Positions 8,470 to 38,906 are shown, numbered from the stretch's first letter. The stretch is DNA of 59,473 nucleotides from an uncultured Enterobacteriaceae bacterium (GCA_964509455.1 CAZDXS010000157.1:1-59473), one strand, 5' to 3'. Notes: generated from the sequence alone by a model not told the origin. A program made the numbers and translations.

Positions 8470-10062
8470 ATGGCATCCAAGCGCAAACAAAAAAACGACG
8501 CGAGCCGCACCGCAACCGCCGCCAACGGCGCGAATCTGGGCTTCGAGAGGCGGCTGTGGGCCGCCGCAGACAAGATGCGCGGCAGCATGGACCCCTCCGA
8601 GTACAAGCACATCGCCCTGGGCCTCATCTTCCTCAAGTACATCTCCGACGCTTTCGAGGCGCACCGCGCCGCCCTGCTGGAAAATAAACAGGCGGATGCG
8701 GAAGACCCGGACGAGTACCTGGCCGCCAACGTCTTCTGGGTTCCCGACAAGGCCCGCTGGTCCCACTTCCAGGCCCATGCCAGGCAACCGTCCATCGGCA
8801 AGATTATCGATGACGCCATGCATGCCATAGAGTCCAGGAACAAGATCCTCAAGGGCGTGTTGCCGAAAATCTACGCGCGCCCCATGCTGAACAAGGTGAT
8901 GTTGGGAGAGTTAATCGACCTTGTCAGCGGCATCGGCATGGGCGAGAAGAGCGACCGCTCGCGGGACGTGCTGGGCCGGGTCTATGAGTATTTTCTGGGC
9001 GCTTTCGCCAGCGCCGAGGGCAAAGGTGGCGGCGAGTTTTACACGCCCAGTTCCATCGTACGCCTGCTGGTCGAGATGCTGGAGCCCTACAAGGGCCGCG
9101 TCTATGACCCCTGTTGCGGCTCCGGCGGCATGTTCGTGCAGTCAGGGAGGTTCGTGGAAGAGCACGGCGGGCGCATCGTCGACGACATCGCCATCTACGG
9201 CCAGGAGAGCAACCCCACCACTTGGCGGCTGGCGCGAATGAACCTGGCGGTGCGGGGCATACCCGCGGAACTGCACTGGAACAACGAGGGCAGCTTCCAC
9301 AAGGATGCGCTGCCTGACCTCAAGGCCGACTTCATCCTGGCCAACCCGCCGTTCAACGATAAGGACTGGGGCGGCGAGCGTCTGCGGGAGGACGCCCGCT
9401 GGCGGTTTGGTGTGCCTGTGAGCAATTCCAACTACGCCTGGTTGCAACACATACGCCACCACCTGGCGCCCGGCGGCGCGGCGGGCGTGGTGCTGGCTAA
9501 CGTTACCATGTCCTCAGGAAAGTCCGACGAGGCCGCCATTCGCCGCGCCCTAGTAGCGGCAGACCAAGTGGACTGCATGGTGGAGTTGCCGGGACAACTT
9601 TTCTACACCACCTCGAGCCTCGCCTGTCTGTGGCTCCTTTCCCGCGACAAAAATGCCGACAAAAAAGGGGGGCGCGACCGCCGCGGCCAGGTGTTGTTCA
9701 TCGATGCCCGCGCCCTGGGCCGCATGGTGGACCGCAAGCACCGGGAATTTACGGACGAGGACATTGAGAAGGTGGCGCGTTGCTACCATGCCTGGCGCGG
9801 CGAACCAGACGCCGGCGAGTACCAAGACATTCCGGGCTTTTGCAAGGCCGCGACCCTGGAGGAAATCGAAGAGCGCGACTGCGTGTTGGCACCGGGACGC
9901 TACGTGGGGGCGGCGCCGGTGGAGGAGGACGGCGAGCCGTTCGCAGACAAGATGCGGCGCCTGGCCGCGGACCTGGGCGAGCAACAGGCCGAGGGGGCGC
10001 GGCTGGACGCGGAAATACGCCGCAACCTGCAAAAACTGGGCTTTGACGCGGGGAAGTCGTGA
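8470..10062 (+). CDS. hsdM: Type I R-M methyltransferase subunit
   Basis: [31 protein letters not shown]; ATG at 8470. Confidence 0.95.
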
Positions 10063-11312
10063 ACATCGACCAACAGGAAGTGGAGCGCCAACTGTGCTTG
10101 GGCGAGGACAGCCGCTGGGAATTCAAGCAAGTGGAGTTTCGCGGCGACAAGCCCGTCAGCCCGTCGCGGGATGATTTGGCCGACGAAATCGCGGCCCTCG
10201 CCAACACGGACGGCGGCGCGGTATTGTGCGGCGTAACGGATGCCGGCGCGGCCCAGGGGCTGTCCAGGGAGCAAATGGATGCTCTGGACGTGCTGGTGGT
10301 GGATGTATGCTCCGATGCCATCCATCCCCCCATAATCCCCGACACACGCCGCTTGGAAGTTGCCGGCGGCAAGCCGTTGCTGTTGGTGCGCGTTTCAGCG
10401 GGTGACGCCGTGCATGAAAGCCCCGGCGGCGACTTTCAGCGAGAGGGCAACTCCCTGCGGCGAATGACCGACGAACAGCGCCTGCGCCTGGCGCAACGGC
10501 GCGGGCAAGCGCGCTTCCTGTGGTTCGATAAGCAACCCGTGCCAGGCACCGGCTTCAACACCTTGGAAGAGAGCCTGTGGAAACCGTTGTTGAGCGCCGC
10601 CGGCGCCGCCGACCCCAGGGCGGCGCTGAAGAGGATGGGCCTGTTGATAAATGATGACAAGCAGAGGTTGCGGGCGTCGGCGGCGGGCATACTGCTGTGT
10701 TGCTCCGCGCCTGATGAGTGGTTTCCCAACGCCTGCATCACGGCTGTTTGCTATCGCGGCGAGGACCGGGCATCAGGACAGGCGGACGCGCAAACCATCA
10801 GCGGCCCGCTTCCCCGCCAAATCAAGGAAGCCGTTGCTTTCGCGGTACGCAACATGCGCGTGCCCGCTCTCAAGGCGCCGACCCGGGAGGAGCGGCCCCA
10901 GTACAGCGAACAAGCGTTGTTCGAGGCGGTGGTCAATGCCGTCGTCCACCGCGATTACGCCATCAAGGGCAGCCGGATTCGCTTGTCCATGTTTGCCGAC
11001 CGGCTGGAGCTTCAATCGCCCGGCCAGTTGCCCAACGGCATGACCGTGGACAGCCTGGGAGACCGGCAATCGGTACGCAACGAGGTGTTGGTTGCGATTC
11101 TCGGCAGGGCGCCGGTGAACGGCATTCGCGGCGGCGGCGACCGGTTGTATCTCATGGAGCGGCGCGGGGACGGCATACCCATTATTCGGCGCGAGACCCG
11201 GGCGCTCAGCGGCAAACCGGCGCAGTTCAAAATGGTGGACGGAGTGGACTTGCGCCTCACCCTGCCCGCGGCCCCGCCGCAGGCGCCGACCCCCGTCCGT
11301 CCAATGCGCTGA
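10059..11312 (+). CDS. AlbA_2 (Schlafen-like) domain + RecG-C/HATPase_c_4 domain protein
   Basis: [19 protein letters not shown] at N-terminus; [26 protein letters not shown]-terminally; GTGA overlap with hsdM stop. Confidence 0.85.
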
Positions 11313-11352
11313 GGCGCATCTCGGTAAGTTGCCGCGCTGGGACCGGGTAACG

Positions 11353-11886
11353 TGGTAAGGAAACCGCTGTTTTGTTACCATGTTCACGGCGATATGGTAA
11401 GGAAGTCGCCGTTTCGTTACCATGTCTTTGGCGATATGGTAAGGAAGTCGCCGTTTCGTTACCATGTCCTGGGCAATGTGGTAAGGAAAGTGCCGTTTTG
11501 TTACCATGTCCTCGGCGATGTGGTAAGCAAAGCACCGTTTTGTTACCATGTGCCTGGCGATATGGTAAAATAACCACCGTTTCGTTACCATGTTTCTGGC
11601 GATATGGTAAGATAACCGCCGTTTCGTTACCATGTCCACGGCAATATGGTAAGCAAACTGCCGTTTCCTTACCATGTCCTGGGCGATGTGGTAATAAAAC
11701 CGCCGTTTCGTTACCATGTTTCTGGCGATATGGTAAAGAAATCGCCGTTTCGTTACCATGTCCTCGGCGATGTGGTAAGGAAAGCGCCGTTTCGTTACCA
11801 TGCCCGCGGCAATATGGTAAGCAAAGCACCGTTTTGTTACCATGTCCTCGGAAATTTGGTAGGATAACCACAACTTTTTTATCATG
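11353..11886. repeat. Strict 42-bp tandem array (12 full units + degenerate 13th) with internal dyad symmetry TGGTAA-N16-TTACCA-N14
   Basis: TGGTAA every 42 bp from 11353 to 11815, TGGTAG at 11857; TTACCATG in all 12 full units; no indels. Confidence 0.97.
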
Positions 11887-12993
11887 TCAAAGTCAAGCGA
11901 TACCCTGACCAACCTGCCGCCAGCCGTTGACCTGGAGACGGCCCCGGTGCTGAAAGCGCTGACGACTGCCCACCGGGCGCTCGCGGAGTTGAAAGGGCGT
12001 GCCGCTACCATTCCCAACCAGAGCATTCTGGTCAATACTCTCACCCTGCAAGAGGCGAAAGCATCATCTGCAATAGAGAACATCGTTACCACCCAGGACG
12101 AACTCTTTCAGGCGGAGCTGTCTCCTGAAAATACGCAATCTGCAGCAACTAAGGAAGTAGCTCGTTACCGTGAAGCATTGAAATTGGGCTTCAAACGCCT
12201 GGAAGATTCCCAAGGCATCATCTCTAACAACACGCTGATCAAGATGTTTCAACTGTTGAAAGAAAGGAGTGGTGGCTTTCGGGAGACGCCTGGCACCGTG
12301 CTAAAAGACGGCCGCACCGGGAGAACTATCTATACGCCGCCGCAGGATGCTAACGAGATCGTGGCGTTGATGACGGACCTGGAACGCTTTGTCAACGAGG
12401 ACGATGCCTGCCCCTTGGATCCACTGACCAAGATGGCGCTCATTCACCACCAGTTCGAGAGCATCCACCCTTTCCCCGACGGCAACGGCAGGGTCGGGCG
12501 CATCCTGAATGTCCTCTACTTGGTCCGTGTCGGCTTGCTGGAATCTCCGATACTTTATCTCAGCCGCTACATTATTCGAACCAAAAATGATTATTACCAC
12601 TTGCTCCAAGCAGTGCGCGGCAACGGCGATGAGGCCGATGCGTGGAGGAAATTGGTGCTGTATATGCTGGAGGGAGTCGCGGAGACGGCGTGCGCCACGC
12701 TGGAGCTGGTGGAGGGCATGCGGGAGCAGACGGCCGCCGCCAAGCATCGCATGCGAACGGAGTTCCCCAGGATGTACTCCCAGGATTTGCTGAACAACCT
12801 GTTTCGGCACCCCTACACGCGCATCGAGTTCGTAGCGGAGGAACTGGACGTCACGCGGCACACGGCCGCCAAGTACCTGGACGCCCTGGCGGGGGCGGGC
12901 TTCGTGCGCAAGCATCGAGTGGGGCGCAACAACTACTATATTAATGAGCGGCTCGTGCAACTGTTCCTGGACGCCGCCGGCGAGTCCCAGTGA
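11884..12993 (+). CDS. Fic family protein (SoFic-like; N-terminal inhibitory helix, C-terminal HTH)
   Basis: HPFPDGNGRVGR Fic motif; SSAIEN inhibitory motif; C-terminal VTRHTAAKYLDAL...G HTH-like segment. Confidence 0.93.
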   Translation: MSKSSDTLTNLPPAVDLETAPVLKALTTAHRALAELKGRAATIPNQSILVNTLTLQEAKASSAIENIVTTQDELFQAELSPENTQSAATKEVARYREALKLGFKRLEDSQGIISNNTLIKMFQLLKERSGGFRETPGTVLKDGRTGRTIYTPPQDANEIVALMTDLERFVNEDDACPLDPLTKMALIHHQFESIHPFPDGNGRVGRILNVLYLVRVGLLESPILYLSRYIIRTKNDYYHLLQAVRGNGDEADAWRKLVLYMLEGVAETACATLELVEGMREQTAAAKHRMRTEFPRMYSQDLLNNLFRHPYTRIEFVAEELDVTRHTAAKYLDALAGAGFVRKHRVGRNNYYINERLVQLFLDAAGESQ

Positions 12994-13052
12994 GCGACGG
13001 GGAAGCATCGGTCGTCAACCCAGGCCGGCGCTGTACAGACCTGCCCTGGAGA

Positions 13053-13061
13053 TGGTATACT
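13053..13061 (+). promoter_or_regulatory. Putative extended -10 promoter for the membrane protein-TIR pair
   Basis: TG-G-TATACT about 26 nt before ATG 13087. Confidence 0.45.
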
Positions 13062-13086
13062 CGACTCAAATTTGGAAACCTTGACG

Positions 13087-13473
13087 ATGGAAGCGAAACT
13101 CAAACATCTTGAATTCATTCAGGGCGTGATTAACCGCCTTGCCGCCGCCTCGTTCAGCGTAAAACGATGGGCCGTGCTCTTGGTGTCGGCGCTCATCTTT
13201 TTGCTGGCGAGAGAGGGGACGTTCGAGTTTGCCTGGGCGGGCTTTGCGTCAGTGGCGATATTCTGGGGGCTTGACGGCTACTTCCTGTGGCAAGAGCGGC
13301 TGTTCCGCGCCCTTTACGACCACGTTCGCAACCTGGACGACCGGGAGATCGACTTCTCCATGGACGCCCGCGCTTTCAAGCGCAGTTGGCTTGGCGCGGT
13401 ATTCTCCCGGACATTGGTCCCGTTTTATCTCGTGCTGGCCGCGCTGGTCGGCGCGGTGGCGTTCATTAACTAA
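13087..13473 (+). CDS. Small multi-pass membrane protein (putative TIR-associated effector)
   Basis: HLEFIQGVINRLAAASFSVKRW, three hydrophobic segments, LDGYFLWQERLFRALYD; directly upstream of the TIR gene. Confidence 0.75.
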   Translation: MEAKLKHLEFIQGVINRLAAASFSVKRWAVLLVSALIFLLAREGTFEFAWAGFASVAIFWGLDGYFLWQERLFRALYDHVRNLDDREIDFSMDARAFKRSWLGAVFSRTLVPFYLVLAALVGAVAFIN

Positions 13474-13494
13474 CCGGACCGAGAGGTGGCAAAA

Positions 13495-13938
13495 ATGGTG
13501 CGACAAGTATTTTTCAGTTTCGAGTACAAGCACGACGTATTACGGGCCAATGTTGTCCGTAAGAGTGGGCTAACTCAGGACCGTGATGATGCTGGATTTG
13601 TGGATGCTGCCGAATTCGAGAAAATTGAGAAAAGAGGTAAAGAAGCCATCAAGAAGTGGATTAGAGAGCAACTTTACGGAACGTCTGTTACTGTCGTGCT
13701 GGTTGGTTCTCATACTTGCGATAGTTACTACGTCGATTATGAGATCGAACAGAGCAAAGCACGAGGCAACGGTCTATTGGGGATTGATATCAGCGAGATA
13801 AAGGATCCAAAGAAAGGGAGGAGCCGGTGTTGCGGTATCATCCCGGCAGGTTATCCATTCTACAGTTGGTTTGGAGACGACGGTTACAAAAATATGGGCG
13901 ATTGGATTGAGAAAGCCGCCAAGGATGCCGGGCGCTGA
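13495..13938 (+). CDS. TIR-like domain protein (ThsB/DUF1863 type)
   Basis: VFFSF, GTSVTVVLVG, YVDYEI (catalytic Glu), RGNGLLGI; GAGGTG Shine-Dalgarno before ATG 13495. Confidence 0.88.
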   Translation: MVRQVFFSFEYKHDVLRANVVRKSGLTQDRDDAGFVDAAEFEKIEKRGKEAIKKWIREQLYGTSVTVVLVGSHTCDSYYVDYEIEQSKARGNGLLGIDISEIKDPKKGRSRCCGIIPAGYPFYSWFGDDGYKNMGDWIEKAAKDAGR

Positions 13939-14084: not shown

Positions 14085-15296
14085 ATGAACTGGGTAGATA
14101 CAACGGTTGGTAACTTCTGTCCATTCAAGTATGGGAAAACCCTGCGCGCCAAGGACAGAAAAGGAGGTGGCGTTCCCGTCTATGGATCAAACGGGATCGT
14201 CGGCTACCACAACGAGGCCTGTGTGGAGGGTGGCGGTGTGATTATTGGTCGAAAGGGTAGCGTTGGATGTGTACATTATTCCGACAACTCCTTTTGGCCA
14301 ATTGACACGACATTTTACGTTTCTAGCGAAGTTAAATCGGAAAATCTATTTTGTAGTTACCTGCTTTCTACCTTGGGACTACAAAATATGAACTCCGATA
14401 CGGCGGTTCCCGGGCTGAATAGAAATTATGTCCATAGCCTGCCAATTCGGATACCCCGGACTCAGAAAGAGAGAGCAAATTTGATTAATCCTCTGCGTGC
14501 CATCGACGACAAAATCGAGTTGAACCGGCGGACGAACGAGACGCTGGAGGCGGTGGCGCGAACGATCTTCAAGGACTGGTTCGTCGATTTCGGCCCCACC
14601 CGCGCCAAGATGGAAGGCCGCGACCCCTACCTTCCCCAGCACCTCGTTGATATCTTTCCAACCCGCCTCGTGAACTCCGAACTCGGCCAAATTCCGGAGG
14701 GGTGGGCGACTGGCACGGTCGCCGATCTCGCTGATCGAATTATCGACAAGGTTGATCATTTTGCTGAATGGCAAGCAGAGCCTCTTATCGATCTCAGCCG
14801 CATGCCACAGCGAGAAATCGCTTTGATGGATTGGGGCCTTGGTGGAGAGTTGACGACCTCGATCACAAGATTTCAGTTGCGAGACACGCTGTTTGGGGCC
14901 ATACGGCCATATTTCCACAAGGTTGGGGTTGCTCCTGTAAATGGCGTAACGAATGTATCAGTGTTTGTCGTTAGGGCAAAAGTGAATGCTGACTGGCCTT
15001 TTATCGCGCTCTTCTGCTCAATGAGCGATACGGTTTCCTGGGCAACGCGTGTCGCGAAGGGGACGAAGATGCCAGTCGTGAGTTGGCCGGATTTCGCTGA
15101 TGCGTCGCTCGTAGTCCCGACATCGCCCCTGCGTATGCGTTTCAATCAGATGGTAGGGCCTCTCCTTGATCGTATCATTGCGAACGCAATCGAATCCAAT
15201 GCACTAGCGGCAACACGCGACGCGTTGTTTCCCAAGCTTATCTCCGGCGAAATCCGAGTGGAGGACGTGGGTGGAGATGTCGGGGAAGCAGTATGA
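14085..15296 (+). CDS. hsdS: Type I R-M specificity subunit
   Basis: Two TRD-like halves; conserved IDDKIELNRRTNETLEAVARTIFKDWFVDF, IPEGW, LAATRDALFPKLISGE. Confidence 0.93.
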   Translation: MNWVDTTVGNFCPFKYGKTLRAKDRKGGGVPVYGSNGIVGYHNEACVEGGGVIIGRKGSVGCVHYSDNSFWPIDTTFYVSSEVKSENLFCSYLLSTLGLQNMNSDTAVPGLNRNYVHSLPIRIPRTQKERANLINPLRAIDDKIELNRRTNETLEAVARTIFKDWFVDFGPTRAKMEGRDPYLPQHLVDIFPTRLVNSELGQIPEGWATGTVADLADRIIDKVDHFAEWQAEPLIDLSRMPQREIALMDWGLGGELTTSITRFQLRDTLFGAIRPYFHKVGVAPVNGVTNVSVFVVRAKVNADWPFIALFCSMSDTVSWATRVAKGTKMPVVSWPDFADASLVVPTSPLRMRFNQMVGPLLDRIIANAIESNALAATRDALFPKLISGEIRVEDVGGDVGEAV

Positions 15297-16357
15297 AAAA
15301 AGCAGTTCGTCAATTTCGTGAAAAGGCGATCAATGCCCTGATACTCTCCATTGATCACTTCAATCGCCCTTGGGACCAAGGTAGAACCGAAGCCGTGCTT
15401 ATTATGTTCGATCATTCGTTTGAAATGCTTCTCAAGGCTGCGATCTTGCATCGACGAGGCAAGATACGAAAGCCGCGTGAAAGGCAAACAATCGGATTCG
15501 GCGATTGCGTCCGGAAAGGGCGAACTGATGTAAATCTGAAAATTCTGAATGACGAGCAGGCGCTCACACTCCAGGCAATCCACGAACAGCGCAATGCTAC
15601 CTATCACCACCTTATCGATATTTCCGAACATCATTTGTACTTCTATGCTCAGTCTGGGATTACTCTATTCCGAGACATCCATGATGATGTTTTTGAAGAA
15701 AAATTGATAATTCATTTACCCGAAAGAGTCCTCCCAATTTCCACAACTGCACCGAAAGATTTGTCCGCACTATTCGATAATGAAGTCAACGAAGTCAAAA
15801 AACTTCTGTCTCCCGGTACTCGTACAAAAATGGAGGCCATGGCAAAGGTTAGAAGCCTGTCAACGCTTGAAAACGCAGTGAATGGAAACTACGGGCAACC
15901 AGGCGATAGAGAACTTGAAAAGATATGCAAGCGCATCTCCGGCGGAGAAGCATGGAAATCCGTTTTCCCTGGCGTGGCGCTTATCAATATCTCTTCTGCA
16001 CCTGAGGGGGCGACTATCAATTTTCGTCTTACCAGAAATGCAGGGGTTCCGATCCATCTCCTGAAAGAAGAAAGGATGGGGGCTGTCGTTGCGCTACGCC
16101 GAGTGAACGAGACTGATTTTTATAATCTGGGTGCGAAGCAATTGGCTAAGAAAGTTGGGATCACGGTGCCGAAGTTAGTCGCCATCGTAGATTATCGGGG
16201 GATCCGGACGGACGAGGATTACTACAAGGAAATCCGGATCGGTAGTACGGTGCACAAGCGATATTCGCAACATGCTATTCGTAAAATTCAGAATGCTCTG
16301 GTTACCGAATCCATCGAAGAGATATGGGTAGCTTGTCAGAAAAAACGCAAGAAATAA
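15293..16357 (+). CDS. DUF3644-like HEPN-type protein
   Basis: HSFEMLLKA and RNATYH (Rx4H); ATGA overlap with hsdS stop. Confidence 0.65.
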   Translation: MKKAVRQFREKAINALILSIDHFNRPWDQGRTEAVLIMFDHSFEMLLKAAILHRRGKIRKPRERQTIGFGDCVRKGRTDVNLKILNDEQALTLQAIHEQRNATYHHLIDISEHHLYFYAQSGITLFRDIHDDVFEEKLIIHLPERVLPISTTAPKDLSALFDNEVNEVKKLLSPGTRTKMEAMAKVRSLSTLENAVNGNYGQPGDRELEKICKRISGGEAWKSVFPGVALINISSAPEGATINFRLTRNAGVPIHLLKEERMGAVVALRRVNETDFYNLGAKQLAKKVGITVPKLVAIVDYRGIRTDEDYYKEIRIGSTVHKRYSQHAIRKIQNALVTESIEEIWVACQKKRKK

Positions 16358-16358
16358 G

Positions 16359-17078
16359 ATGGCTCGATTCACCCAAAATGATGAGGATAGCGTAGTTATG
16401 GTGGGGGAAATATTCCAAGGCAATTGCCCTTATTGTGGCACTCGACAGGTGGCATTTGAGATTCTGCGTTTTACTCCTGACGATCTTAGGGGTTTAACTA
16501 TGACGATAGGTGGGATGAATTTTCCCGTACCAATGGATGTAGATATATTTGCAAAATGCGCACAATGTGACCGTGGAGTTGCAGGGGAAGCACGGATTAC
16601 GCTCGATAGAGGCGCATCGGGTATCGAGATTCTCGAGCCCAAGGTCTTTTCTCGACCCGACATTCCAACATTGAGGCATATTCCCCCAGATGTGAGGGAT
16701 ATTTTTAGAGAAGGCCAGGAGAGTATGTGGGACAAACGCTACATGGCAGCTGGGGCGATGTTTCGCAAAGCATTGGAAGCAGGAATGAAAATCAAGTTTC
16801 CTGAACTCCGAGGGTCTTTGCAGAGGTGTATTGATCAGGCGAAGAAAGACAGTCTTCTAACGGCAGAGATGGCGGAATGGGCTCACCAAATACGCTCTCT
16901 TGGCAACGAAGCTGCGCATGAGGAACGCTTCTTGGAAGACGATGCCAAAGAGTTGCACACATTTACCCTCTTGGTACTGCTCTACCTATTTACGTTGCCG
17001 GAGATGATGAAAAACGCCCGTGAAAAGAACAAGCTTGATTCCGAAAATGCCGAGACTACGACTCGTGCTGAAGAGTAA
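16359..17078 (+). CDS. DUF4145 (HEPN) domain protein with N-terminal Zn-ribbon-like Cys pairs
   Basis: CPYC/CAQC; AAGAMFRKALE; IRSLGNEAAHE. Confidence 0.8.
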   Translation: MARFTQNDEDSVVMVGEIFQGNCPYCGTRQVAFEILRFTPDDLRGLTMTIGGMNFPVPMDVDIFAKCAQCDRGVAGEARITLDRGASGIEILEPKVFSRPDIPTLRHIPPDVRDIFREGQESMWDKRYMAAGAMFRKALEAGMKIKFPELRGSLQRCIDQAKKDSLLTAEMAEWAHQIRSLGNEAAHEERFLEDDAKELHTFTLLVLLYLFTLPEMMKNAREKNKLDSENAETTTRAEE

Positions 17079-17092
17079 GGATTGGTACTGAC

Positions 17093-17341
17093 ATGACTGC
17101 CCCTGTTTCTGATGCAAGGATGAACTACCCCGCCATCAACTATTCGGAATTTTCTGAATTCGCAGGAGCGCGTCCGCCAAGCGCCTGGATGTCCTATCTG
17201 GCGCGAGTCCAATGGGCGGTAAGCCCAGGTGAAAGCTACCATATATTGTGGAATAGCCAGGATCCAATACAGGGACTTGATCTGACATACCGTATCTGGT
17301 ACCATTCGTTGGTAGTGAATTGTCGTACATTAACTGGTTAG
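17093..17341 (+). CDS. Small hypothetical protein (82 aa)
   Basis: Fills the gap between DUF4145 and patatin on the same strand with short spacing; no motif recognised. Confidence 0.35.
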   Translation: MTAPVSDARMNYPAINYSEFSEFAGARPPSAWMSYLARVQWAVSPGESYHILWNSQDPIQGLDLTYRIWYHSLVVNCRTLTG

Positions 17342-17359
17342 CCCGGGAGGTTGCCCGCG

Positions 17360-19232: not shown

Positions 19233-19451
19233 ATGAAATCTGCCACGACCAAGAAGAGACAGCGCCTCAGTCAGGAGGAAATTGAGCAGACCTTTCGCGA
19301 TCTGGGTCTCGATGACCCGGAGGTGCGCCGCCGCTTCCAGCAACTCTCAGAATTTGAGGGCTGGTCCAGCGGCTGGAAAAGGCGGGAATATTACGACCGC
19401 TTCGCCATCAACAGAAGAAATTTCGTGGGGAGAAATCCAGGAGACAAGTAA
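19233..19451 (+). CDS. Small hypothetical protein (72 aa) coupled to the S49 peptidase
   Basis: TAATG stop/start overlap with the next gene. Confidence 0.55.
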   Translation: MKSATTKKRQRLSQEEIEQTFRDLGLDDPEVRRRFQQLSEFEGWSSGWKRREYYDRFAINRRNFVGRNPGDK

Positions 19452-30109: not shown

Positions 30110-30805
30110 TCATTGCTTGTCGCATTTAATCGGCAACCGCTCCAGCCACGGGATGAAGTCGGGGTCGGGAGTTTCATCGACGTGATTCTGGTTCCACAAC
30201 AACGAGCGCCGCACCGCACCGCGGTTGCTGTGGTTGCCCAGCCACTGCGGGTAGGACGGCGGCGGCTTATCGTGATATGCCGACAGCAACGCGATGCTGT
30301 TGCGCTCCAGGTAGCCGCGGTCGCTGTCCGGCCCCGGTGCATCATCAATACAGGCCACCGCGAAAGGCAACTTGCCAATGTACTCGGAGACCAGGCGTTC
30401 CAGCGGCAACTCCCCCTCAGTTAGCTCGGAGCGGTCCATGCCCAGCGCCCTGGCGGCGCTTCCCGGGCTTGATTTGTACCCCCAGGATTTCACCGGTTTG
30501 TGATCGCCGCACTTCATCAGCGCTTTCCCCACCAGCAACCGAAAGATGGAGCCGCGATGATTGCCGCCGCCGGATCCGAGGGTCCCCCGATGTTGCGACA
30601 GTCGCCCCCACAACGTGGACTTCGAGCCGGCTTTCAAGGCATGCGTTCCCACGCGCACGACGCGGGAACGGTCCGACTCCCAGAAGAAATACACGCCGCG
30701 CCGCGGCAACCCCGTCCCGCTGCCGGCATCCGCCAGGTAGCGATAGCCGCCCTGATTTGCTACCAGCAATTCCAGCCACTGGTAGAACCGCTCCCGCTCA
30801 GTCAT
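30110..30805 (-). CDS. GIY-YIG-like protein, paralogue 1
   Basis: GVYFFW...RVVRVG...LWGRLSQH; YLERNSIALL; LWNQNH; ATG overlaps the DUF6884 stop (ATGACTGA). Confidence 0.65.
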   Translation of the reverse strand: MTERERFYQWLELLVANQGGYRYLADAGSGTGLPRRGVYFFWESDRSRVVRVGTHALKAGSKSTLWGRLSQHRGTLGSGGGNHRGSIFRLLVGKALMKCGDHKPVKSWGYKSSPGSAARALGMDRSELTEGELPLERLVSEYIGKLPFAVACIDDAPGPDSDRGYLERNSIALLSAYHDKPPPSYPQWLGNHSNRGAVRRSLLWNQNHVDETPDPDFIPWLERLPIKCDKQ

Positions 30806-31244
30806 CCCGGGCGCGGGAGGCACAACAGTTTTGCAACCAGCTCAGTTGCTCCCCGATTCTCATCCCCTCCATCGGCACGTCCACCTCGTATCCGGCATCC
30901 TCCAACGGCGCCGCCAGGTTTTCGCGGTACCTGGCGCCCGCCAGGAAGACGAACCGGCAGGGATCCAGTTTCAGCAAGTCCTCAAGCACCGGGGCCGCCC
31001 AGTTCCGCCGCTCCCGTGCACCCATATTGTTCAGGGTTTTCTCGTACGGCTCGATCTCCTTTTCCGGGTCAACCAGCCCGTATTTCGCCGAGAGTATGAA
31101 CCAGGGGCATCCCTTGGCCTCCACGTAGCGCCGCGCCTTGAGGAACCAGTCGGATTGATACAAGTCCTTGGCTGCGCACGGGTAGCCCTGTTTTACCGAG
31201 ACGCAGGAAACCAAGTAAATAGTGTCGTCGTTATGTGCGTTCAT
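30798..31244 (-). CDS. DUF6884-like protein
   Basis: IYLVSCVSVK...AKDLYQSDWFLKARRY...WFILSAKYGL...IEPYEKTL...LAGARY...PMEGMRIGEQL; family name from memory. Confidence 0.7.
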   Translation of the reverse strand: MNAHNDDTIYLVSCVSVKQGYPCAAKDLYQSDWFLKARRYVEAKGCPWFILSAKYGLVDPEKEIEPYEKTLNNMGARERRNWAAPVLEDLLKLDPCRFVFLAGARYRENLAAPLEDAGYEVDVPMEGMRIGEQLSWLQNCCASRARDD

Positions 31245-31302
31245 CGTTCTTATTCTGTGATGGAAACGCAGGATGATACCACAGCAGGCAAATCATGGGG
31301 CG
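31238..31302. repeat. 65-bp direct repeat, copy 1 (extended -10, 5'UTR and ATG of the DUF6884-like gene)
   Basis: 64/65 identical to 38842-38906; contains TG-G-TATCAT on the minus strand. Confidence 0.95.
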
Positions 31303-31457: not shown

Positions 31458-34241
31458 TCACGTTTTGTCGCCGCCCGTGGTGAGGCGCTTATCCAGTTCC
31501 ACAAATTGCTGGAGCGTGCTAAAACCGCCGCGGTCGAAGTCGACCTGGTTCACTCGCAGGTAGCGCCAGGGGATGCCGATTTCCTTGCTCACCCGTTCGC
31601 ACCACTGCGCCATGGCGTTGTCCTTTGCTTCCGTTCCCTCCCAGACACGCCCTTTCGTCTCGATGATCCAGTTCACTTCGCCGGCATCGGTTTTTTGCAC
31701 CACCACCCAGTCCGGATAGTAGAAGCCAATGGCGCCGCTCGCTTTCAGGTAGTCCACTCGAAACTGGCTGCTGGAATCTCCTTGCTCGGTGGTGCCCAGC
31801 GCGGCGAAGCGCACCACGTCTTTTGCGATGTCCAGAAACTGGGCGAAGCGGCGCTCGAAGCCGTTGTAGGTCGCCACGTAGTTGAAGACCGTCTTCTTTG
31901 CTCGAGGCGGCGGCAGGTCGCGCCGCCAGAGGAACTTCTTGGTCTCGGAAAGATGGTGGTCCTCCTTGTCGAACTCAATGACGCGCCGCACGACCGTCAA
32001 CTCCGCGATTTTGCGCGCCAGGTACTTGGCGATGCCTTCCCGCAAAGGCAGGCGGTTGAGGTGCGAGCGCACCGCTTTAGCATTAATGTCGACTTCCCTG
32101 CCGAAACAACGCGTCGTCACGTAGTCCCGCACGATGGGGTATAGCTCTGCGAAGCGGTTAGGCAGTTTAGCCTCGCCGATGACCTTGTTGGTAATGCTTG
32201 CCAGCAACTCTTGGGCAAGGAGCAACTCGCCCTCGATGGGTTCTACGTGGATCTCGGTCTCCGTGGGGGCGAATTTTATCTTGAGCGTAACGCGGAATGG
32301 CTCGTCCAGCTCCTTCTGATCGTAGATCGCCTCCAACTCGTCGACGCGAAGTTCCGCCAGCTTGCGAATGTCGTACGCCAGGCTTGGCTTGGTGATTGGA
32401 ATGGCGATGTCGTACTTTATCTTCTCCTGCACAGGCTCGATGATGACCCCCACCGGTGGGTCGGTTTTGGTGACGGCTACGCCCACGCCCTCCGCCTCCA
32501 GTTGCTCGCGCAGAACCTTCAGCAGGTTGCGTGTGCCCAGAACTTCCAGGGTTTGCGTCCGGTCCTGGCTTACCCCAGCCATGAGGCGCAACCCCCTGCC
32601 GATGACCTGCTCCGGCAGGATCTCGGCCTTGGCGGTGAACGGGCGCAGACCCAGCACCACGGAGACGTTCCGCACGTCCCAGCCTTCGCGCAACATCATC
32701 ACGCTGACGATTGCCTTGATGTTGCTCTCTGCCGCGTCGATGTCGCGCGCCGCCGCCCGGGCCTTGTCCAGGTCTTTCTTGGTGATCTCGCCCGCCGTGT
32801 CCGTGTGAATCACCAGCACTTCATCTTGCTTGAAGCCGAACTCTTTGGTTTGCCGCAGGTAGTTGCCGATGGCGTCCGCATAGACGTTTTTCTCGGTCAT
32901 GATGAACAGCACCGGGCGCGTGTTGAGTTTTTTGTAGGTCTCATGATGCACTTTCCAGCGTAGCACCGCGGCCTGCAACCAGTAACCGTACTTCTCGACG
33001 ACATTTTCCTTGGTGATGCCGTCGGGATCTTCCTGGGGTTGCTTAGGATCGTCCTCCTTGGTGACGATGAGCGGCGCCTTGACGATGCGGTCTTCCACCG
33101 CTTGGGCAAGAGGGTAGTCGCATACCGTCCAGGGGAAGTACATCCCGTTCTGATCTTTCGGCGTGGCGGAAAAGTCCAACCACATTGCGAGCCCCTGCGG
33201 CAACGCGTCGTGAATGGCGAGCAGGGATCGACTCCATTGCAGATCCTCGTCGTGAACATGGTGGGCCTCGTCATTCAGCACCACCAGATCGTTTAGCGAC
33301 TTCATCCTTTCCAGCATCGAGCGTTGACCTGAAGATGCCAGGTCTTTCGCCGGCGGGCCCAGTAGCGCATCGATGGGGTTGGCGGGCATCCACTCCTTGT
33401 CCCGCGACTCGTAAAGTTGCTGGATGTTGGTGAGAAAGAGGTTGCCCGAGGCGGCGGGATCCGCGGCATCGCCGCGCAGGATTACGTTCTGGCTGAAAGC
33501 CCCTTTCCACTCCGGCGGGACCAGCGGTAGCCTGTGAAAGATGCTGTTGTCCCTGAAGTCCTTTTCCAGCCGCTGGTAAACAATTACGTTGGGCGCGACA
33601 ATCAAGAAATTGGTCGAGAGCCCCGAGTCCGCCACTTGTTGTTTGTGAAGCCGGGCCCAGACAATGGCCATGGCCATGACCCAGGTCTTGCCCGAGCCGG
33701 TCGCCATCTTGAATGCGAAGCGGCGCAGATCCTCCGGCGGGAGATCCTGCACTCCATCATTATTCAGCTCGGGAACGTAGCGGCGCAATTGCCGTCGGCC
33801 ATCCATGGTGGTTTGGAACTCGATGTCGTCGGCTAGCAGGTCTTTTTTGAACTTGCTTGCATACTTCTTGATCAAGTCCTGTACATCGCGTTGCCCGGCG
33901 ATCTCCACCCGCCACACCAGCGTCTCGATGGCTTCGCGCTGGCAGAAGTGATAGCGGAACGTGTCATCAAACCCCGGGACTTCATGGTCCTCCTCGAACC
34001 AGTACCCGAAAAGGCGCCGCGTCACGGCGGAGGCGCCGGCGTAGCCCCCCTCCCGCCACGCATCCACAGCAGTACGGATCTTCGGCACCAGCAACCGCTG
34101 GCTGTCGCGCCGGCCGGCTTCCACCCGCCAGCCGGTAGCGGCCGCCTCGTCTTTCACCAAGTGGGAAGTGGGCTTTTCCCATGGGCAACGGCCCGGAATT
34201 TCCGGCAGGTCTTTGTCGTAGGCGATGACGGATTTTGCCAT
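31458..34241 (-). CDS. res: Type III restriction enzyme Res subunit
   Basis: FKMATGSGKT, NDEAHH, FSATP, MLREGWD, EQVIGRGLR; C-terminal YPDW...IETKG nuclease. Confidence 0.92.
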   Translation of the reverse strand: MAKSVIAYDKDLPEIPGRCPWEKPTSHLVKDEAAATGWRVEAGRRDSQRLLVPKIRTAVDAWREGGYAGASAVTRRLFGYWFEEDHEVPGFDDTFRYHFCQREAIETLVWRVEIAGQRDVQDLIKKYASKFKKDLLADDIEFQTTMDGRRQLRRYVPELNNDGVQDLPPEDLRRFAFKMATGSGKTWVMAMAIVWARLHKQQVADSGLSTNFLIVAPNVIVYQRLEKDFRDNSIFHRLPLVPPEWKGAFSQNVILRGDAADPAASGNLFLTNIQQLYESRDKEWMPANPIDALLGPPAKDLASSGQRSMLERMKSLNDLVVLNDEAHHVHDEDLQWSRSLLAIHDALPQGLAMWLDFSATPKDQNGMYFPWTVCDYPLAQAVEDRIVKAPLIVTKEDDPKQPQEDPDGITKENVVEKYGYWLQAAVLRWKVHHETYKKLNTRPVLFIMTEKNVYADAIGNYLRQTKEFGFKQDEVLVIHTDTAGEITKKDLDKARAAARDIDAAESNIKAIVSVMMLREGWDVRNVSVVLGLRPFTAKAEILPEQVIGRGLRLMAGVSQDRTQTLEVLGTRNLLKVLREQLEAEGVGVAVTKTDPPVGVIIEPVQEKIKYDIAIPITKPSLAYDIRKLAELRVDELEAIYDQKELDEPFRVTLKIKFAPTETEIHVEPIEGELLLAQELLASITNKVIGEAKLPNRFAELYPIVRDYVTTRCFGREVDINAKAVRSHLNRLPLREGIAKYLARKIAELTVVRRVIEFDKEDHHLSETKKFLWRRDLPPPRAKKTVFNYVATYNGFERRFAQFLDIAKDVVRFAALGTTEQGDSSSQFRVDYLKASGAIGFYYPDWVVVQKTDAGEVNWIIETKGRVWEGTEAKDNAMAQWCERVSKEIGIPWRYLRVNQVDFDRGGFSTLQQFVELDKRLTTGGDKT

Positions 34242-34243: not shown

Positions 34244-36107
34244 CTATTTCACCTCCACGGCGAACACCTGCGAGGTGTCATTGCCGAAAATGTCAATCAC
34301 CTTGACGAGGATGCGGTACTTGCCCGGCTTCTCGTAGGCATGCGGGTCGGAGACCAGCGGCAGTTGGCGCTCCTTGCGCGTGCGGTACGCCACCCAGCCT
34401 TGCATGAAAGTATCGTTGCGGAAGTCCCAGTCCACCGCCCAGTAGTCGATGTAGTCCGACGACTCCTGCACCTTGTCGCGCACGTCCTCCGGAATCAGCT
34501 CGGTGTTGGGGATGACGAAATTTTTCAGCGCCACCTGCGCGGTAAGTTTCTCCGGTTGCTTGATCTTGGCTTCCAGATACGCCAGCTGGAAAAAGTGTAC
34601 GTCGCCCTGTGCCACGGCCTGCTCCTCTATCGCCTCTCGAGGAATCTGCAAGAGCAGAAGATTCACGCCTCGGTTTCCTGCCTCTGACACCATCAGGTTT
34701 CCGTTAAGGCCCATCTCCCACTCCCAGCCAAGTACGTGCAACTCGTCCTGCTTGAGCTTCACGCATTCATCCACCGCGGCATCGATATCGTTTATGGTTA
34801 CTGGCGCTTCTACCGCGCCGATGCGGACTAGGGCCTTGCCTTTCCTGCCGTGCAGGTGCGTCATGTCTGCCAGCGGCTGGGCGCCGTAAAGATTGAGAAT
34901 GAAAGCCAGGTACTCGTAGAGCGCCTGCTCCGTGAGCGGCCTGCCTTGCGCTTCGCCGAAAGTCACATCCTGCCAGTGTTGGTGCTCGTACTTGCCGAGA
35001 TTGAGGATCTCGAAAGGTTTGCAGTTCTCGATGCCGAGCAAGCGCTTGCGGGTGACATGAGTGCCCCAGCGCCCCAGGTCGCAACCAATCCAACGACGGC
35101 CCAGCTTCTCGGCGACAGCGAGGGTGGTGCCGGAGCCGCAGAAAAAGTCGGCGACTAGGTCGCCCTCGTTGGAAGATGCCTTGATGATGCGTTCCAACAA
35201 GGCCTCGGGCTTTTGGGTGGGGTAGCCAACTCGCTCGCTACTCATCGGTTGATTCTGCATAGAATTTATATCTGCCCAGACCGTAGAAACCGCTTTGCCT
35301 TCGGTTAAATAGCGGCGGCGGCCAGCAAGAACATAATACTGTCTCCCATTCTCGTCCACTTGATCGTGTTTATCGACCCACTCTTGCGAATGCGGAACAA
35401 GTTGTTTGTTGAATACTGGACTACCTTTGTGGTAGTAAAACAAAACATCGTGATTCCTAATCCACTTATCTGCCCTGGCTTTATAGCCACTAACTGCTTC
35501 GCCCATCCGCCAAATTATCTCATTTCTAAAATTATCTTTCCCAAAAACTTCATCCATCAACAACCGAACGAAGCTATTCACACGCCAATCGCAATGTACG
35601 TAAATACTGCCGTTATCAGCGAGCAAGTCGCGCATCAAGACGAGGCGCTCCCAGATCATCGCGACATAACTGTCCACCCCCTTACTCCAAGTGTCGCGAT
35701 ACGCCTTTTCCTCGATAACAGATTGCTCCTTTTCGACCTCGAGGCTATCTTCACCAATCTGCGCCTTAAAGGAAAAATCCGCCCCTGTCGCAAACGGCGG
35801 GTCAATGTAGATGAGGTCAATTTTACCCGCCAATCTCTCCAGCAAAGACCCCATCACCAGCAAGTTGTCGCCCCATATCAGCTTGTTTTGCCAGCCATTT
35901 TCGGGGTTGCCCCCCCCAGGTTTTAAATAACGTGTCTTGTGGGCCGAGTCGTCCTTTATGAGCCTCGCGCGTGGCGCGGGTCTCGTTCACGGCCTCGATG
36001 ACCTGGAACGGCAGGTTGACGCGCGGCACCTCCTTGAGTGCGCCATTCTCGTCGTACTTGCCCGGCCACACCAGTTCGGTTTTTTCTACGGCGTTGATTG
36101 TTGTCAT
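34244..36107 (-). CDS. mod: Type III Mod (beta-class N6-adenine MTase), copy A; frameshifted at a G8 tract (G7 or G10 restores the frame, ~620 aa)
   Basis: ELVWPGK N-terminus in one frame, NKLIWGDN-IDPPF-TRD-DFFCGSGTT in another; junction is the homopolymer at 35910-35917. Confidence 0.9.
35910..35917 (-). repeat. Poly-G(8) tract in mod copy A
   Basis: C8 on the plus strand at the frameshift point. Confidence 0.9.
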
Positions 36108-36270: not shown

Positions 36271-38141
36271 CTACTTCACCTCCACGTCGAAGACCTGCGA
36301 GGTGTCGTTGCCGAAAATGTCAATCACCTTGACGAGGATGCGGTACTTGCCCGGCTTCTCGTAGGCATGCAGGTCGGAGACCAGCGGCAGATTGCGCTCC
36401 TTGCGCGTGCGGTATGTCACCCAGCCCTGCATGAAAGTGTCGTTGCGGAAGTCCCAGTCCACCGCCCAGTAGTCGATGTAGTCCGACGACTTCTGCACCT
36501 TGTCGCGCACGCTCTCCGGAAGCAGCCCGGTGTCAGGGATGACGAACTCTTTCAGCGCCACTTGTACAGTGAGTTCCTTCGGGCGCTTGATCTCGGCTTC
36601 CAGATACGCCAGCTCGAAGAAACGCACGTCGCCCTTGGCCACGGCCTGCTCCTCCATCACCTCGCGAGGGATCCGCAAGAGTTGGAGCTTTACGCCTTTT
36701 TGCTTCGCCAGCCCCACCACCAGTTTGTTGAGTCCCATCTCCCATTCCCAGCCGAGCACGTGCAACTCGCCCTGCTTGATCTTCACGCACTCTTCTACCG
36801 CGGCATCGATCTCGTCTATCGTTACCGGGGCATCTACGGCGCCGATGTGAACCATCGCCTTGCCTTGCTTGCCGTGCAGGTGCGCCATGCCCGCCAGCGG
36901 TTGGGCGCCGTAAAGCTTCAGAATGAAAGCCAAGTACTCGTAGAGGGCCCGCTCGGTGAGCGGCTTGTCCTGCGCCTCACCGAAAGTCACGCCTTGCCAG
37001 TACTGGCGTTCGTACTTTCCGAGGTTTAGCACTTCGAATGGATTGCAGTTATCGATGCCGAGCAAGCGCTTGCGGCTGACGTGGATGCCCCAGCGTCCCA
37101 GGTCGCAACCGATCCAGCAGCGGCCCAACTTTTCGGCAACGGCAAGGGTGGTACCGGAACCGCAGAAAAAGTCAGCGACCAGATCTCCCTCATTAGACGA
37201 TGTCCGAATGATTCTCCTGAGGATGCTTTCGTTTTTCTGGGTATCGTATCCTGTCTTCTCCTGCGAGAAGCTTTTGATCTGAATCGAATCAAGTGAATCT
37301 TCCCCCCTGAGCTCGAACTCGAACGAGTTAGCATTCCATACGTCCTCTATGGGATAGCCCTTGCCTTCTGTCTCACCGCCCCTTCGTTCGTAGCCAGAGG
37401 GGTACGGAACGTACTCTTTATTAAACGTGAAATCATCAGGCGCCTTAACATAGAAGAGAATCGTGTCGTGATTCCGAATCCAGTTCTTTGCGGCGCTCTT
37501 GTAGCCTGAAATCCAGCCGATTCGCCAGACGACCTCCCGCTGGAATGAGTCGATGCCAAAAATTTCGTCCATCAAGGACTTAACGTAGTGGCCGACCGTG
37601 GCATCCAGATGAACATAAATTGAACCTCGCGGGCTCAAGAGAGAACGCATAAGGGTGAGGCGATCCCGGATCATCTCCAGATAGCCGGCAAGGCCGCTCC
37701 CCCAGGTGTCGTGATACGCTTTTTCCTCGATAACAGATCGCTCTTTCTTTAACTCGGGGCCCTTTTCGCCAACCTGCGTTTTGAATGAAAAATCCGCCCC
37801 CGTCGCAAACGGCGGGTCAATGTAAATGAGGTCAATTTTCCCCGCCAACTTCTCTAGCAACGACCCCATCACCAGCAGATTGTCGCCCCAGATTAGCTTG
37901 TTGCGCCAACTCTCCGCCTCGACGCTGTCGCTTTCGGGCGCACCCCCCCCCCCCAGATTTTGTAGAACGTGTCTTGTGGGCCGAGCCGTCCCTTATTCGC
38001 CTCCCGCGTGGCGCGGCTCTCGTTCACGGTCTCGATGACCTGGAACGGCAGGCTGACGCACGGCGTCTCCTTGAGACGGCCGTCCTCGTCGTACTTGCCC
38101 GGCCATACCAGTTCGGTCTTGGTTATGTCGATTTTCGCCAT
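36271..38141 (-). CDS. mod: Type III Mod, copy B with a different TRD; frameshifted at a G12 tract (G13 or G10 restores the frame, ~623 aa)
   Basis: MAKIDITKTELVWPGK N-terminus out of frame with NKLIWGDN-IDPPF-TRD-DFFCGSGTT; junction is the homopolymer at 37943-37954. Confidence 0.9.
37943..37954 (-). repeat. Poly-G(12) tract in mod copy B
   Basis: C12 on the plus strand at the position homologous to the G8 tract of copy A. Confidence 0.92.
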
Positions 38142-38155
38142 GTGCTTCGGAGTGC

Positions 38156-38848
38156 TTACAACAGCCCGGCTTTGCGGAAACTGAAAGTCTCTTGTTGCGA
38201 CACAATCAGGTGGTCCAGGATGCGCAGGTCGACGGTTTCCGCGGCTAGGACGACGGCGCGCGTGGTCACCTTGTCCTGCTCGCTGGGCTGGACGTTGCCG
38301 TTCGGATGATTGTGGGCAAGTACCAGGGCCGCCGCCCGGCGCCGTAGCGCTGCCTCGACCACGCGGCGCGGATACACGGCGGCGCGATTGACCGTGCCTT
38401 CCTGCAAGGTCTCCACGCCGTCGCGGAGCAGTCGGCAACCGGAGTCCAGGTACGCCACGGCAAACACCTCGTGCTGGAGCATGCCGATTTTGGCGCGCCA
38501 GAAATCACTGAGCCGGCCGGGGTCGAGCAACACCTCCCCTTCCTCGGACGCCTGTTGCAGGTAGAGCGTTGCCGCGGCGCGAACGGCCTGCAGGTTGACG
38601 GCGGCCACTTCGCCCACGCCCTTGACCGACTGGAGTTCCGCCAGGGGCGCATCGAGGATGCCGCGCAGGCTGCCGAAACGCGCCAGCAGGGCCTTGGCGG
38701 CCGGCTTGGTGTCTTTTCGGGGGATGGCCAGGGTCAGGAGCATCTCGATGACCTCGTACTCCGCAAATCCCGCCAATCCTCCCTTGCGGAAGCGCTCGCG
38801 CAGTCGCCGGCGGTGCTGTACGTAGTGCGGCTGTTCCTGTCCGTTCAT
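38156..38848 (-). CDS. radC: RadC-family JAB/MPN domain protein
   Basis: HRRRLRERF, LLTLAIPRKDTKP, GTVNRAAVYPRRV, HNHPNG...PSEQD, ILDHLIV. Confidence 0.93.
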   Translation of the reverse strand: MNGQEQPHYVQHRRRLRERFRKGGLAGFAEYEVIEMLLTLAIPRKDTKPAAKALLARFGSLRGILDAPLAELQSVKGVGEVAAVNLQAVRAAATLYLQQASEEGEVLLDPGRLSDFWRAKIGMLQHEVFAVAYLDSGCRLLRDGVETLQEGTVNRAAVYPRRVVEAALRRRAAALVLAHNHPNGNVQPSEQDKVTTRAVVLAAETVDLRILDHLIVSQQETFSFRKAGLL

Positions 38849-38906
38849 CGTTTTTATTCTGTGATGGAAACGCAGGATGATACCACAGCAGGCAAATCAT
38901 GGGGCG
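38842..38906. repeat. 65-bp direct repeat, copy 2 (extended -10, 5'UTR and ATG of radC)
   Basis: 64/65 identical to 31238-31302. Confidence 0.95.

Follow-up and report, generated by a model that had tools for sequence, protein, structure and literature searches.

The DNA analysed here, referred to as the window, is a whole contig of 59,473 nucleotides (C157; CAZDXS010000157.1 of GCA_964509455.1) from an uncultured Enterobacteriaceae bacterium. It is one of 270 contigs in a fragmented, approximately 95% complete assembly of 2.78 Mb with a genomic GC content of 0.649. The window carries a type I restriction-modification (RM) operon, hsdM-hsdS-hsdR, whose two intergenic slots (hsdM-hsdS, or M-S, and hsdS-hsdR, or S-R) are both occupied by other genes, and this operon opens a larger cluster of defence systems. 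Genes were assigned by Pfam, PADLOC and NCBIfam profile searches, start sites were refined at the junctions, and catalytic motifs were checked. The hsd genes are the following.

8470..10062 (+): hsdM methyltransferase, 530 aa, NPPF motif; Pfam N6_Mtase (2.9e-99) and HsdM_N; PADLOC MTase_I (2e-202)
14085..15296 (+): hsdS specificity subunit, 403 aa; PADLOC Specificity_I (7.6e-75, residues 1-395); Pfam Methylase_S (residues 2-155)
20780..24025 (+): hsdR restriction subunit, 1081 aa, GSGKS and DEAH motifs; Pfam HSDR_N, SWI2_SNF2, T1R_D3-like and T1RH-like_C; PADLOC REase_I (E = 0)

Judged by their domains and motifs, the three genes look like an intact type I RM set. A simple PD-(D/E)xK regular expression had no match in HsdR, so its nuclease motif is putative. 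The M-S gap is 4,022 nt and the S-R gap is 5,483 nt, in agreement with an original prediction, made by a model from the sequence, that about 4 and 5.5 kb of co-oriented cargo split the operon. Together the gaps hold 11 genes, all on the + strand, with a total load of 9.5 kb, and the distance from the hsdM stop to the hsdR start is 10,718 nt. Foreign same-strand genes inside one multi-gene system characterize an embedded defence locus, and the operon is of this kind.

The first cargo gene of each slot starts within the stop of the preceding hsd gene, through a GTGA overlap after hsdM (10059-10062) and an ATGA overlap after hsdS (15293-15296). A TAATG overlap at 19449-19453 joins two cargo genes of the S-R slot, a 72-aa open reading frame (ORF) and a serine protease gene. 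All three overlaps had been predicted, and all are present. The cargo had also been described as more AT-rich than the backbone, which is correct for most of it (0.53-0.54 GC against 0.65-0.66). The GC content is 0.543 in the M-S slot, excluding its first gene, and 0.528 in the S-R slot, compared with 0.638 for hsdM, 0.652 for hsdR and 0.658-0.678 for the window backbone. However, the first gene of the M-S slot (0.654) is as GC-rich as hsdM, and hsdS itself (0.526) is as AT-rich as the cargo. The conserved core of hsdS is higher in GC than its recognition domains. GC at third codon positions (GC3) varies from module to module, between 0.47 and 0.76.

The M-S slot contains four genes and a tandem array.

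10059..11312 (+): Schlafen/AlbA_2 and HATPase_c_4 protein, 417 aa (Pfam); start overlaps the hsdM stop
11353..11851 (no strand): tandem array of 11.9 units of 42 bp (repeat family D1, TRF score 607), directly upstream of SoFic
11884..12993 (+): SoFic, a Fic AMPylase with an HPFPDGNGR motif; PADLOC SoFic (1.1e-114); Pfam Fic_N, Fic and SoFic-like_C; a known defence gene
13072..13473 (+): PDC-M50A, a small predicted membrane protein with hydrophobic segments in its translation; PADLOC 3.9e-42
13486..13938 (+): PDC-M50B, a ThsB-like TIR protein; Pfam ThsB_TIR (2.7e-21); PADLOC ThsB (1.5e-52) and PDC-M50B (3.7e-43)

A weakly supported promoter-like site at 13032-13061 lies ahead of PDC-M50A. Thoeris was not recognised, since the TIR protein is partnered by PDC-M50A and no SIR2/ThsA family was found among the island ORFs scanned. 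The units of the 42-bp array are dyad-like, and the array occupies the space from the Schlafen-like gene to SoFic. An ORF at 11372-11908 was rejected as a gene; it covers the array and belongs to no Pfam or PADLOC family.

The S-R slot contains seven genes.

15293..16357 (+): PDC-S19 (DUF3644); PADLOC 3.5e-150; start overlaps the hsdS stop
16359..17078 (+): DUF4145 protein; Pfam DUF4145 (1.1e-12); not a PADLOC system
17093..17341 (+): 82-aa ORF, no family matched
17351..18286 (+): effector of a cyclic-oligonucleotide-based anti-phage signalling system (CBASS), patatin-like phospholipase with GGGSK, GTSTG and DGG motifs; PADLOC Effector (2.5e-140); Pfam Patatin
18289..19182 (+): CBASS cGAS/DncV-like nucleotidyltransferase (CD-NTase) with a GS...DID motif; PADLOC Cyclase (7.8e-120)
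19233..19451 (+): 72-aa ORF; stop overlaps the start of the next gene
19451..20446 (+): SDH-type ClpP-like serine protease; Pfam SDH_protease (3.1e-25); NCBIfam Clp_like_SDH (99 bits, below cut-off); no PADLOC match

The CD-NTase lies beside its effector, which makes a two-gene CBASS; Pfam and PADLOC assigned no CBASS accessory family to the adjoining ORFs. Gene calling on an independent 2.9-kb Logan contig (SRR16090826), 100% identical to 14588-17473, also gave the 82-aa ORF. This contig was the sole match in an exact look-up of PDC-S19, and it adds nothing on the island junctions.

Homologues of the SDH-type protease are 62-72% identical and come from several phyla. ORFs of 66-67 aa precede and overlap the protease start in loci L157, L159 and L161, and in alignment the small ORFs share the motif F-x-x-L-x-L ... 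R-x-R ... R-N, with invariant residues in 10 columns. A distant copy (37% identical) lies directly upstream of hsdM in genome G008, again with a small overlapping ORF. The pair stood in a defence-like setting twice and twice formed an isolated two-gene insertion. A literature search found no paper tying the SDH protease family to defence. The small ORF and the protease are a candidate for an undescribed anti-phage or toxin-antitoxin-like module. As a separate observation, the pairing of a 66-78-aa ORF with an SDH protease is kept across phyla (window 19233-20446; L157, L159, L161 and L148).

PADLOC already has models for seven of the 11 embedded genes, with strong E-values. Among the embedded modules, four lack such a model, namely the Schlafen-like ATPase, the DUF4145 protein, the 82-aa ORF and the pair of small ORF and SDH protease. 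The proposal that every unannotated ORF in the slots is a defence candidate is a published heuristic (bioRxiv 10.1101/2024.01.29.577857) and was overstated.

Slot content across the hsd family

The best relative of the window's HsdM protein among 5.8 billion proteins is only 76% identical. A family sample was assembled from 80 loci with the closest HsdM proteins (61-74% identical), taken with 10-kb flanks from many phyla including archaea. hsdR lies downstream on the same strand in 67 of them, and only 10 of these 67 are compact. The median distance from the hsdM stop to the hsdR start is 2,884 nt, and the largest is 7,364 nt, a value limited by the 10-kb flank. The median amount of extra DNA in the 67 loci is approximately 1.6 kb. 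A slot longer than 500 nt is found between hsdS and hsdR in 51 of 66 loci and between hsdM and hsdS in 11 of 66. Same-genus relatives of the bacterium hold the hsd family as well, at other chromosomal positions and with 3-12 kb between hsdM and hsdR.

When the co-oriented slot ORFs of the family and of the hsd loci of the relatives were grouped along with nine of the window's cargo genes (n = 161), they fell into 89 families, 62 of which are singletons. Many of these ORFs match PADLOC models, among them SoFic, PDC-S04, PDC-S05, PDC-S14, PDC-S23, HEC-01A and RmrA/CapP-like. The same cargo family can occupy different slots: the Schlafen-like protein is in the M-S slot here, its homologues in L061 and L083 (57-58% identity) are in the S-R slot, and Fic proteins are found in both.

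Across the family, the contents of the slots turn over and the flanking hsd genes are conserved. Among 61 pairs of loci with HsdM proteins at least 90% identical, 85% have no cargo family in common. In the 59 pairs that could be aligned as DNA, a median of 13% of the hsdM-hsdR interval aligns, and in no pair does the aligned part exceed 80%. In close pairs, nucleotide similarity extends over the whole of hsdM, a core of 190-295 nt in hsdS, and hsdR from its first codons; nothing else is similar. The target-recognition domains of hsdS and the cargo are replaced jointly in nearly all close pairs. In two Paracoccaceae pairs (L107/L128 and L109/L091), the chromosomal flanks are homologous too, so that the sites are orthologous and the slot content has been swapped. 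Operons with such similar hsd genes, nearly all of the intervening DNA replaced and similarity ending at gene boundaries fit the view that the hsd slots are recombination hotspots.

We tentatively propose that operons of this hsd family serve as integrase-free cassette platforms. hsdM, the approximately 200-nt hsdS core and hsdR would be the homology arms, and one exchange could swap a target-recognition domain together with the cargo of the adjoining slot. If so, a single event would alter restriction specificity along with the embedded second-line defences, and no product seen to date would be as heavily loaded as the window. The original prediction had attributed cargo turnover to recombination between the hsd flanks. 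The family comparison supports cargo turnover between conserved flanks for the family and not for this particular locus, and it gives quantitative support to an idea voiced only in passing in the literature.

An alternative is that single modules were inserted mainly by illegitimate events into a tolerant locus, a "genomic sink" as discussed previously (bioRxiv 10.1101/2024.01.29.577857), with no special part for recombination in the hsd flanks. The spread of GC3 across modules, the occurrence of one family in different slots at different loci, the promoter-like sites ahead of PDC-M50 and Gabija (described below), and the presence of the SDH module as an isolated two-gene insertion in unrelated contexts are all as expected from piecemeal insertion. 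However, piecemeal insertion does not readily account for similarity that stops exactly at the hsd gene boundaries with the hsdS core retained, for the joint replacement of target-recognition domains and cargo, or for the canonical operon stop/start overlaps, which the leading cargo gene in either slot retains. We consider it unlikely as the main route.

One alphaproteobacterial metagenome-assembled genome (OZ219790/OZ219791) contains three hsdM copies (L068-L070), each 72% identical to the query. Their downstream contents differ: one copy belongs to a complete M-S-RhuM-R operon, another is followed by a truncated hsdR, and the third stands by itself. These copies could show slot rearrangement within one genome.

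The right half and the chromosomal setting

The original prediction described an island of approximately 30 kb built on the hsd operon as a scaffold. A dense, integrase-free defence island is indeed present, but only 8470-24025 (15.6 kb) is embedded in the operon. The region from 24.0 to 38.9 kb consists of approximately 15 kb of adjacent, non-embedded systems, half of them on the other strand.

24247..25938 (+): GajA, the OLD-family ATPase-TOPRIM nuclease of Gabija; PADLOC GajA (6.2e-196); Pfam DUF2813, AAA_15 and OLD-like_TOPRIM
26010..27935 (+): GajB, the UvrD-like helicase of Gabija; PADLOC GajB (1.6e-175); Pfam UvrD-helicase
28012..29049 (+): RhuM family protein (PDC-S05); Pfam Virulence_RhuM (2.4e-109); PADLOC PDC-S05 (3.6e-154)
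29234..30055 (-): PDC-M57B copy 1, tandem duplicate (repeat family D4); PADLOC 8.1e-67
30110..30823 (-): PDC-M57B copy 2; PADLOC 6e-67
30798..31244 (-): PDC-M57A, 148 aa; PADLOC 1.2e-41; start codon within the left 69-nt repeat copy
31234..31302 (no strand): 69-nt direct repeat, left copy (repeat family D19); leader and first 11 nt of the PDC-M57A coding sequence
31458..34241 (-): res, restriction subunit of the type III RM system, GSGKT and DEAH motifs; Pfam ResIII and RE_endonuc; PADLOC REase_III
34244..36107 (-): mod copy 1 of the type III RM system, with a frameshift at G8 (35910-35917); PADLOC MTase_III (6.4e-119, from profile position 87)
36271..38141 (-): mod copy 2 of the type III RM system, with a frameshift at G12 (37943-37954); PADLOC MTase_III (5.9e-116)
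38156..38848 (-): accessory RadC-like JAB protein; Pfam RadC (4.3e-35)
38838..38906 (no strand): 69-nt direct repeat, right copy; leader and first 11 nt of the radC coding sequence

GajA followed by GajB constitutes a Gabija system, and a promoter-like site precedes it in a scan that overall was not above chance. The hsd operon, Gabija and RhuM lie on the + strand and PDC-M57, the type III RM system and RadC on the - strand, so that the two halves converge at 29049-29234.

Local duplication had been anticipated as one source of cargo and is evident in three places: the PDC-M57B pair (891-nt period, 78% amino acid identity), the mod pair (approximately 2,027-nt period, 68% amino acid identity), and the array of about 12 units of 42 bp. 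The res gene is intact and is 68-72% identical to the res genes of two relatives, G011 and G012. Each mod gene reads through only with a change of frame at its poly-G tract: the N-terminal part of copy 1 is in another frame with the homopolymer visible, and the N-terminal fragment of copy 2 matches profile positions 3-59. These splits resemble phase variation and may represent it, or they may be homopolymer assembly errors. The housekeeping radC gene is on contig C251, and its product is 34% identical to the accessory protein. Close homologues of the accessory RadC were found only in G011 and G012, again beside mod-res and at another chromosomal site. A 388-aa gene beside the RadC module in these two genomes was considered as an integrase and rejected, because its homologue here resembles a DUF4143-type AAA ATPase; Pfam assigns a similar gene of G001 to AAA_14/DUF4143.

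The original prediction found no recombinase, transposase or att pair. No recombinase or transposase is present on the contig: all sizeable ORFs between 8.2 and 39.0 kb were assigned and none is of this kind, and the intergenic DNA leaves no room for one. In the assembly as a whole, a six-frame search found only two tyrosine recombinases, on C174 and C249, of which the C249 gene is in a conserved backbone context. rve transposases were found only on other small contigs; for serine recombinases, and for DDE families apart from rve, coverage was through the per-ORF Pfam scans only. Contig C157 has no tRNA and no Rfam family, the island has no transfer gene, and no repeat pairs 8.2 kb with 39.0 kb. 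IntI, attI and attC were not found either.

As for att-like sequences, no repeat lies at the island ends, but the 69-nt direct repeat (31234-31302 and 38838-38906) had been overlooked, although its right end is the coordinate at which the prediction had ended the island. The copies are identical at 67 of 69 positions (97%, blastn), including all of the last 53 nt, and no other copy exists in the genome. The pair is internal to the island and brackets the 7.6-kb res-mod-mod-radC module. The repeat has no copy in the relatives' loci, and the RadC-mod-res modules of G011 and G012 have no flanking repeats. An identity of 53 nt is long enough for RecA-dependent homologous recombination. The res-mod-mod-radC module could therefore be lost or gained through this repeat.

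At the left end of the contig, grpE, hrcA, a NAD-kinase-sized gene and recN (NCBIfam equivalog, E = 4e-165) are in the same order as in 17 same-genus relatives, and only 264 nt separate recN from hsdM. To the right of the island are a resistance-nodulation-division (RND) pump and a membrane-fusion protein, 71-78% identical in relatives, followed by metabolic genes. Island genes are absent after recN in all 17 relatives. The gene converging on recN is an orthologue of a gene of contig C240 in 15 of the 17. It is 3-172 nt away in 13 of them, and in the other two it is 1.6 kb (G003, with HipA) and 7.4 kb (G018, with IS110 and RTX/cadherin genes) away. The RND pump is followed, in nine of ten relatives examined, by genes located here on contig C22, with 1-6 kb of variable DNA between them. 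In the tenth, G010, approximately 14 kb of unmatched low-GC DNA including a CBASS pair follows the pump. In all relatives examined, recN and the pump lie far from each other and are never adjacent; therefore, the island is located at a synteny break. The comparison of the recN-to-RND interval across relatives that came with the original prediction is not feasible for this reason.

On this evidence, the interval between recN and the RND operon is very probably occupied by a composite, integrase-free defence island of approximately 30.7 kb (GC content 0.592), in which the hsd slots are filled with self-contained anti-phage modules. The cluster comprises at least nine anti-phage systems, recognised or candidate.

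The synteny break admits another reading, which we regard as possible but unlikely: two hotspot islands, a recN-side + half and an RND-side - half, were joined by rearrangement or chimeric assembly near 29.1 kb, and no single 30-kb island exists. An assembly chimera is less likely than a real rearrangement that fused two islands. Such a junction would agree with the separation of recN and the pump in relatives, with the convergence of the two halves, and with the RadC-mod-res module standing alone in G011 and G012. The usual neighbour of recN is here on C240, a contig of 2 kb, those of the pump are on C22, which ends inside that gene, and the assembly is in 270 pieces. Both sites are also variable in relatives, downstream of recN (HipA in G003; IS110 and RTX/cadherin in G018) and downstream of the pump (CBASS in G010; methylases and a DUF4143 ATPase in G001). 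However, no other contig shares sequence with the junction. The only contig overlapping C157 is C63 (dnaK), at the left end of the window; the right end and the island share no sequence with any. Moreover, the relatives are distant (RecN approximately 60% identical, GC 0.50-0.60) and the synteny upstream of the pump differs too, so that rearrangement is common regardless. The embedded cargo is unaffected by the choice between one island and two.

It is highly unlikely that the single island is a former or present site-specific mobile element, such as an integrative and conjugative or integrative mobilizable element (ICE/IME), whose integrase and att sites were lost or are on an unassembled piece. 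RadC-like accessory genes are often carried by mobile elements. The absence of the island from the recN site of relatives, its lower GC content and the incomplete, fragmented assembly would also suit this explanation. However, both flanking backbone genes are on the contig, and neither an integrase, a tRNA, a transfer gene nor a terminal repeat was found at 8.2 or 39.0 kb. Furthermore, of the two tyrosine recombinases in the assembly one is in conserved backbone, and the sole repeat pair is internal. The boundary recombinase, terminal direct repeats and tRNA typical of ICE, IME and islands like phage-inducible chromosomal islands (PICI) are thus lacking on the contig.

Relatives likewise have a defence hotspot in the DNA that follows the RND pump. 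G010 carries a CBASS-like pair, a SMODS cyclase and a patatin (L049, 6866-9657), and G001 carries two N6/N4 methylases and an AAA_14/DUF4143 ATPase (L059, 3967-7446), in both cases downstream of the pump.

Defence genes are found at four separate places in the window. A type II RM pair at 3006-5061 (-) is inserted between hrcA and the NAD-kinase-like gene; it consists of a restriction endonuclease (PADLOC REase_II, 7e-91) and a C5 cytosine methylase with an 11-nt overlap, and this interval is without the pair in 17 of 17 relatives. A second type II pair at 47333-50075 (-), an XcyI-like endonuclease and an N4/N6 methylase with an 8-nt overlap, lies amid metabolic genes, where the local GC content is 0.61-0.64. 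Diverged tandem repeats occur at gene ends outside the island, at 1-650, 1121-1393, 45330-45654 and 55182-55477, with periods of approximately 225-268, 45, approximately 103-129 and 43 nt, respectively.

A model for assembly and turnover

Catalytic motifs are intact in HsdM, HsdR, SoFic, the patatin, the CD-NTase, GajA, GajB, res and both mod bodies. Each module is predicted to act by the mechanism of its own family: restriction, AMPylation, TIR/NAD+ signalling, a cyclic-nucleotide-activated phospholipase, or an OLD nuclease with a helicase. Through nesting, the modules would be linked to the hsd genes in transfer and, in part, in expression. Each slot opens with a gene joined to hsdM or hsdS by its stop/start overlap and presumably co-transcribed with it, and several later modules may use promoter-like sites of their own.

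The mosaic would have been assembled through several independent acquisitions and local tandem duplication. hsdM, the central region of hsdS and hsdR would persist, and the target-recognition domains and slot cargo would be replaced, most economically by homologous recombination within the conserved hsd genes. The 69-nt repeat around res-mod-mod-radC may allow a module to be gained or lost by a second route, through short homology.

Several points weigh against this account of a single, working island with exchange through the hsd genes. The operon structure is putative, since promoter and terminator scans of the island were not above shuffled expectation. Both mod genes are out of frame as assembled; therefore, the type III system may be off, or the tract lengths may be wrong. 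Contiguity across the convergent junction at 29.05-29.23 kb is taken from the assembly. Since one cargo family can be in either slot, flank recombination cannot be the sole route. Finally, no near copy of the island was found in the collections searched, and exact-protein look-ups of RadC, HsdM and PDC-M57A gave no match; turnover and the order of acquisition at this locus are therefore conjectural. Within a short stretch, the island offers a natural test bed of nine systems, recognised or candidate, and of four embedded modules that lack a model.

Comparison with known systems

The locus is an unusually heavily loaded case of an already described arrangement and not a new kind of system. Type I RM, bacteriophage exclusion (BREX), DISARM and Hma systems often hold embedded genes, 96.7% of which are oriented as their host (Payne et al., bioRxiv 10.1101/2024.01.29.577857). 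The same study used this "guilt-by-embedding" to define PDC candidates that are now in PADLOC. The window resembles these loci in having same-strand defence genes nested in a multi-gene system, and it matches their models PDC-S19 and PDC-M50 inside the operon and PDC-S05 and PDC-M57 outside it. It differs in a load far above that of the 67 related loci and in its four embedded modules without a PADLOC model.

The anticodon nuclease PrrC is almost exclusively embedded in type I systems (bioRxiv 10.1101/2024.01.29.577857). For EcoprrI-PrrC, published work describes the RM enzyme as keeping it silent and a phage anti-restriction factor as its trigger. EcoprrI-PrrC and the window share a second-line defence gene in the S-R slot of an hsdM-hsdS-hsdR operon. 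However, the island has no PrrC/RloC homologue, and any functional coupling of its cargo to the RM enzyme is hypothetical. Another parallel is the RptR-RMS-DarTG2-M48 island of enteropathogenic Escherichia coli (EPEC), in which the hsdS-hsdR site was termed a potential recombination hotspot (PMC12255303). In both cases a defence module, there a toxin-antitoxin, lies between hsdS and hsdR. In contrast to the EPEC island, the window has no DarTG or M48 peptidase, and it has no RptR-like first gene, recN and hsdM being 264 nt apart; it contains many more modules, and its M-S slot is also filled.

Integrons likewise combine a fixed platform with changing co-oriented cassettes. IntI, attI and attC are lacking here, and exchange would proceed through ordinary homology. 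In the hsd loci of Campylobacter jejuni with rlo genes and in the immigration control region of E. coli, variable genes lie in or beside hsd at a conserved spot. In the window, by contrast, the genes flanking the island are not conserved neighbours in relatives. Nested genes in type I RM operons are already established, and the present locus is unusual in its load and in having both slots filled.

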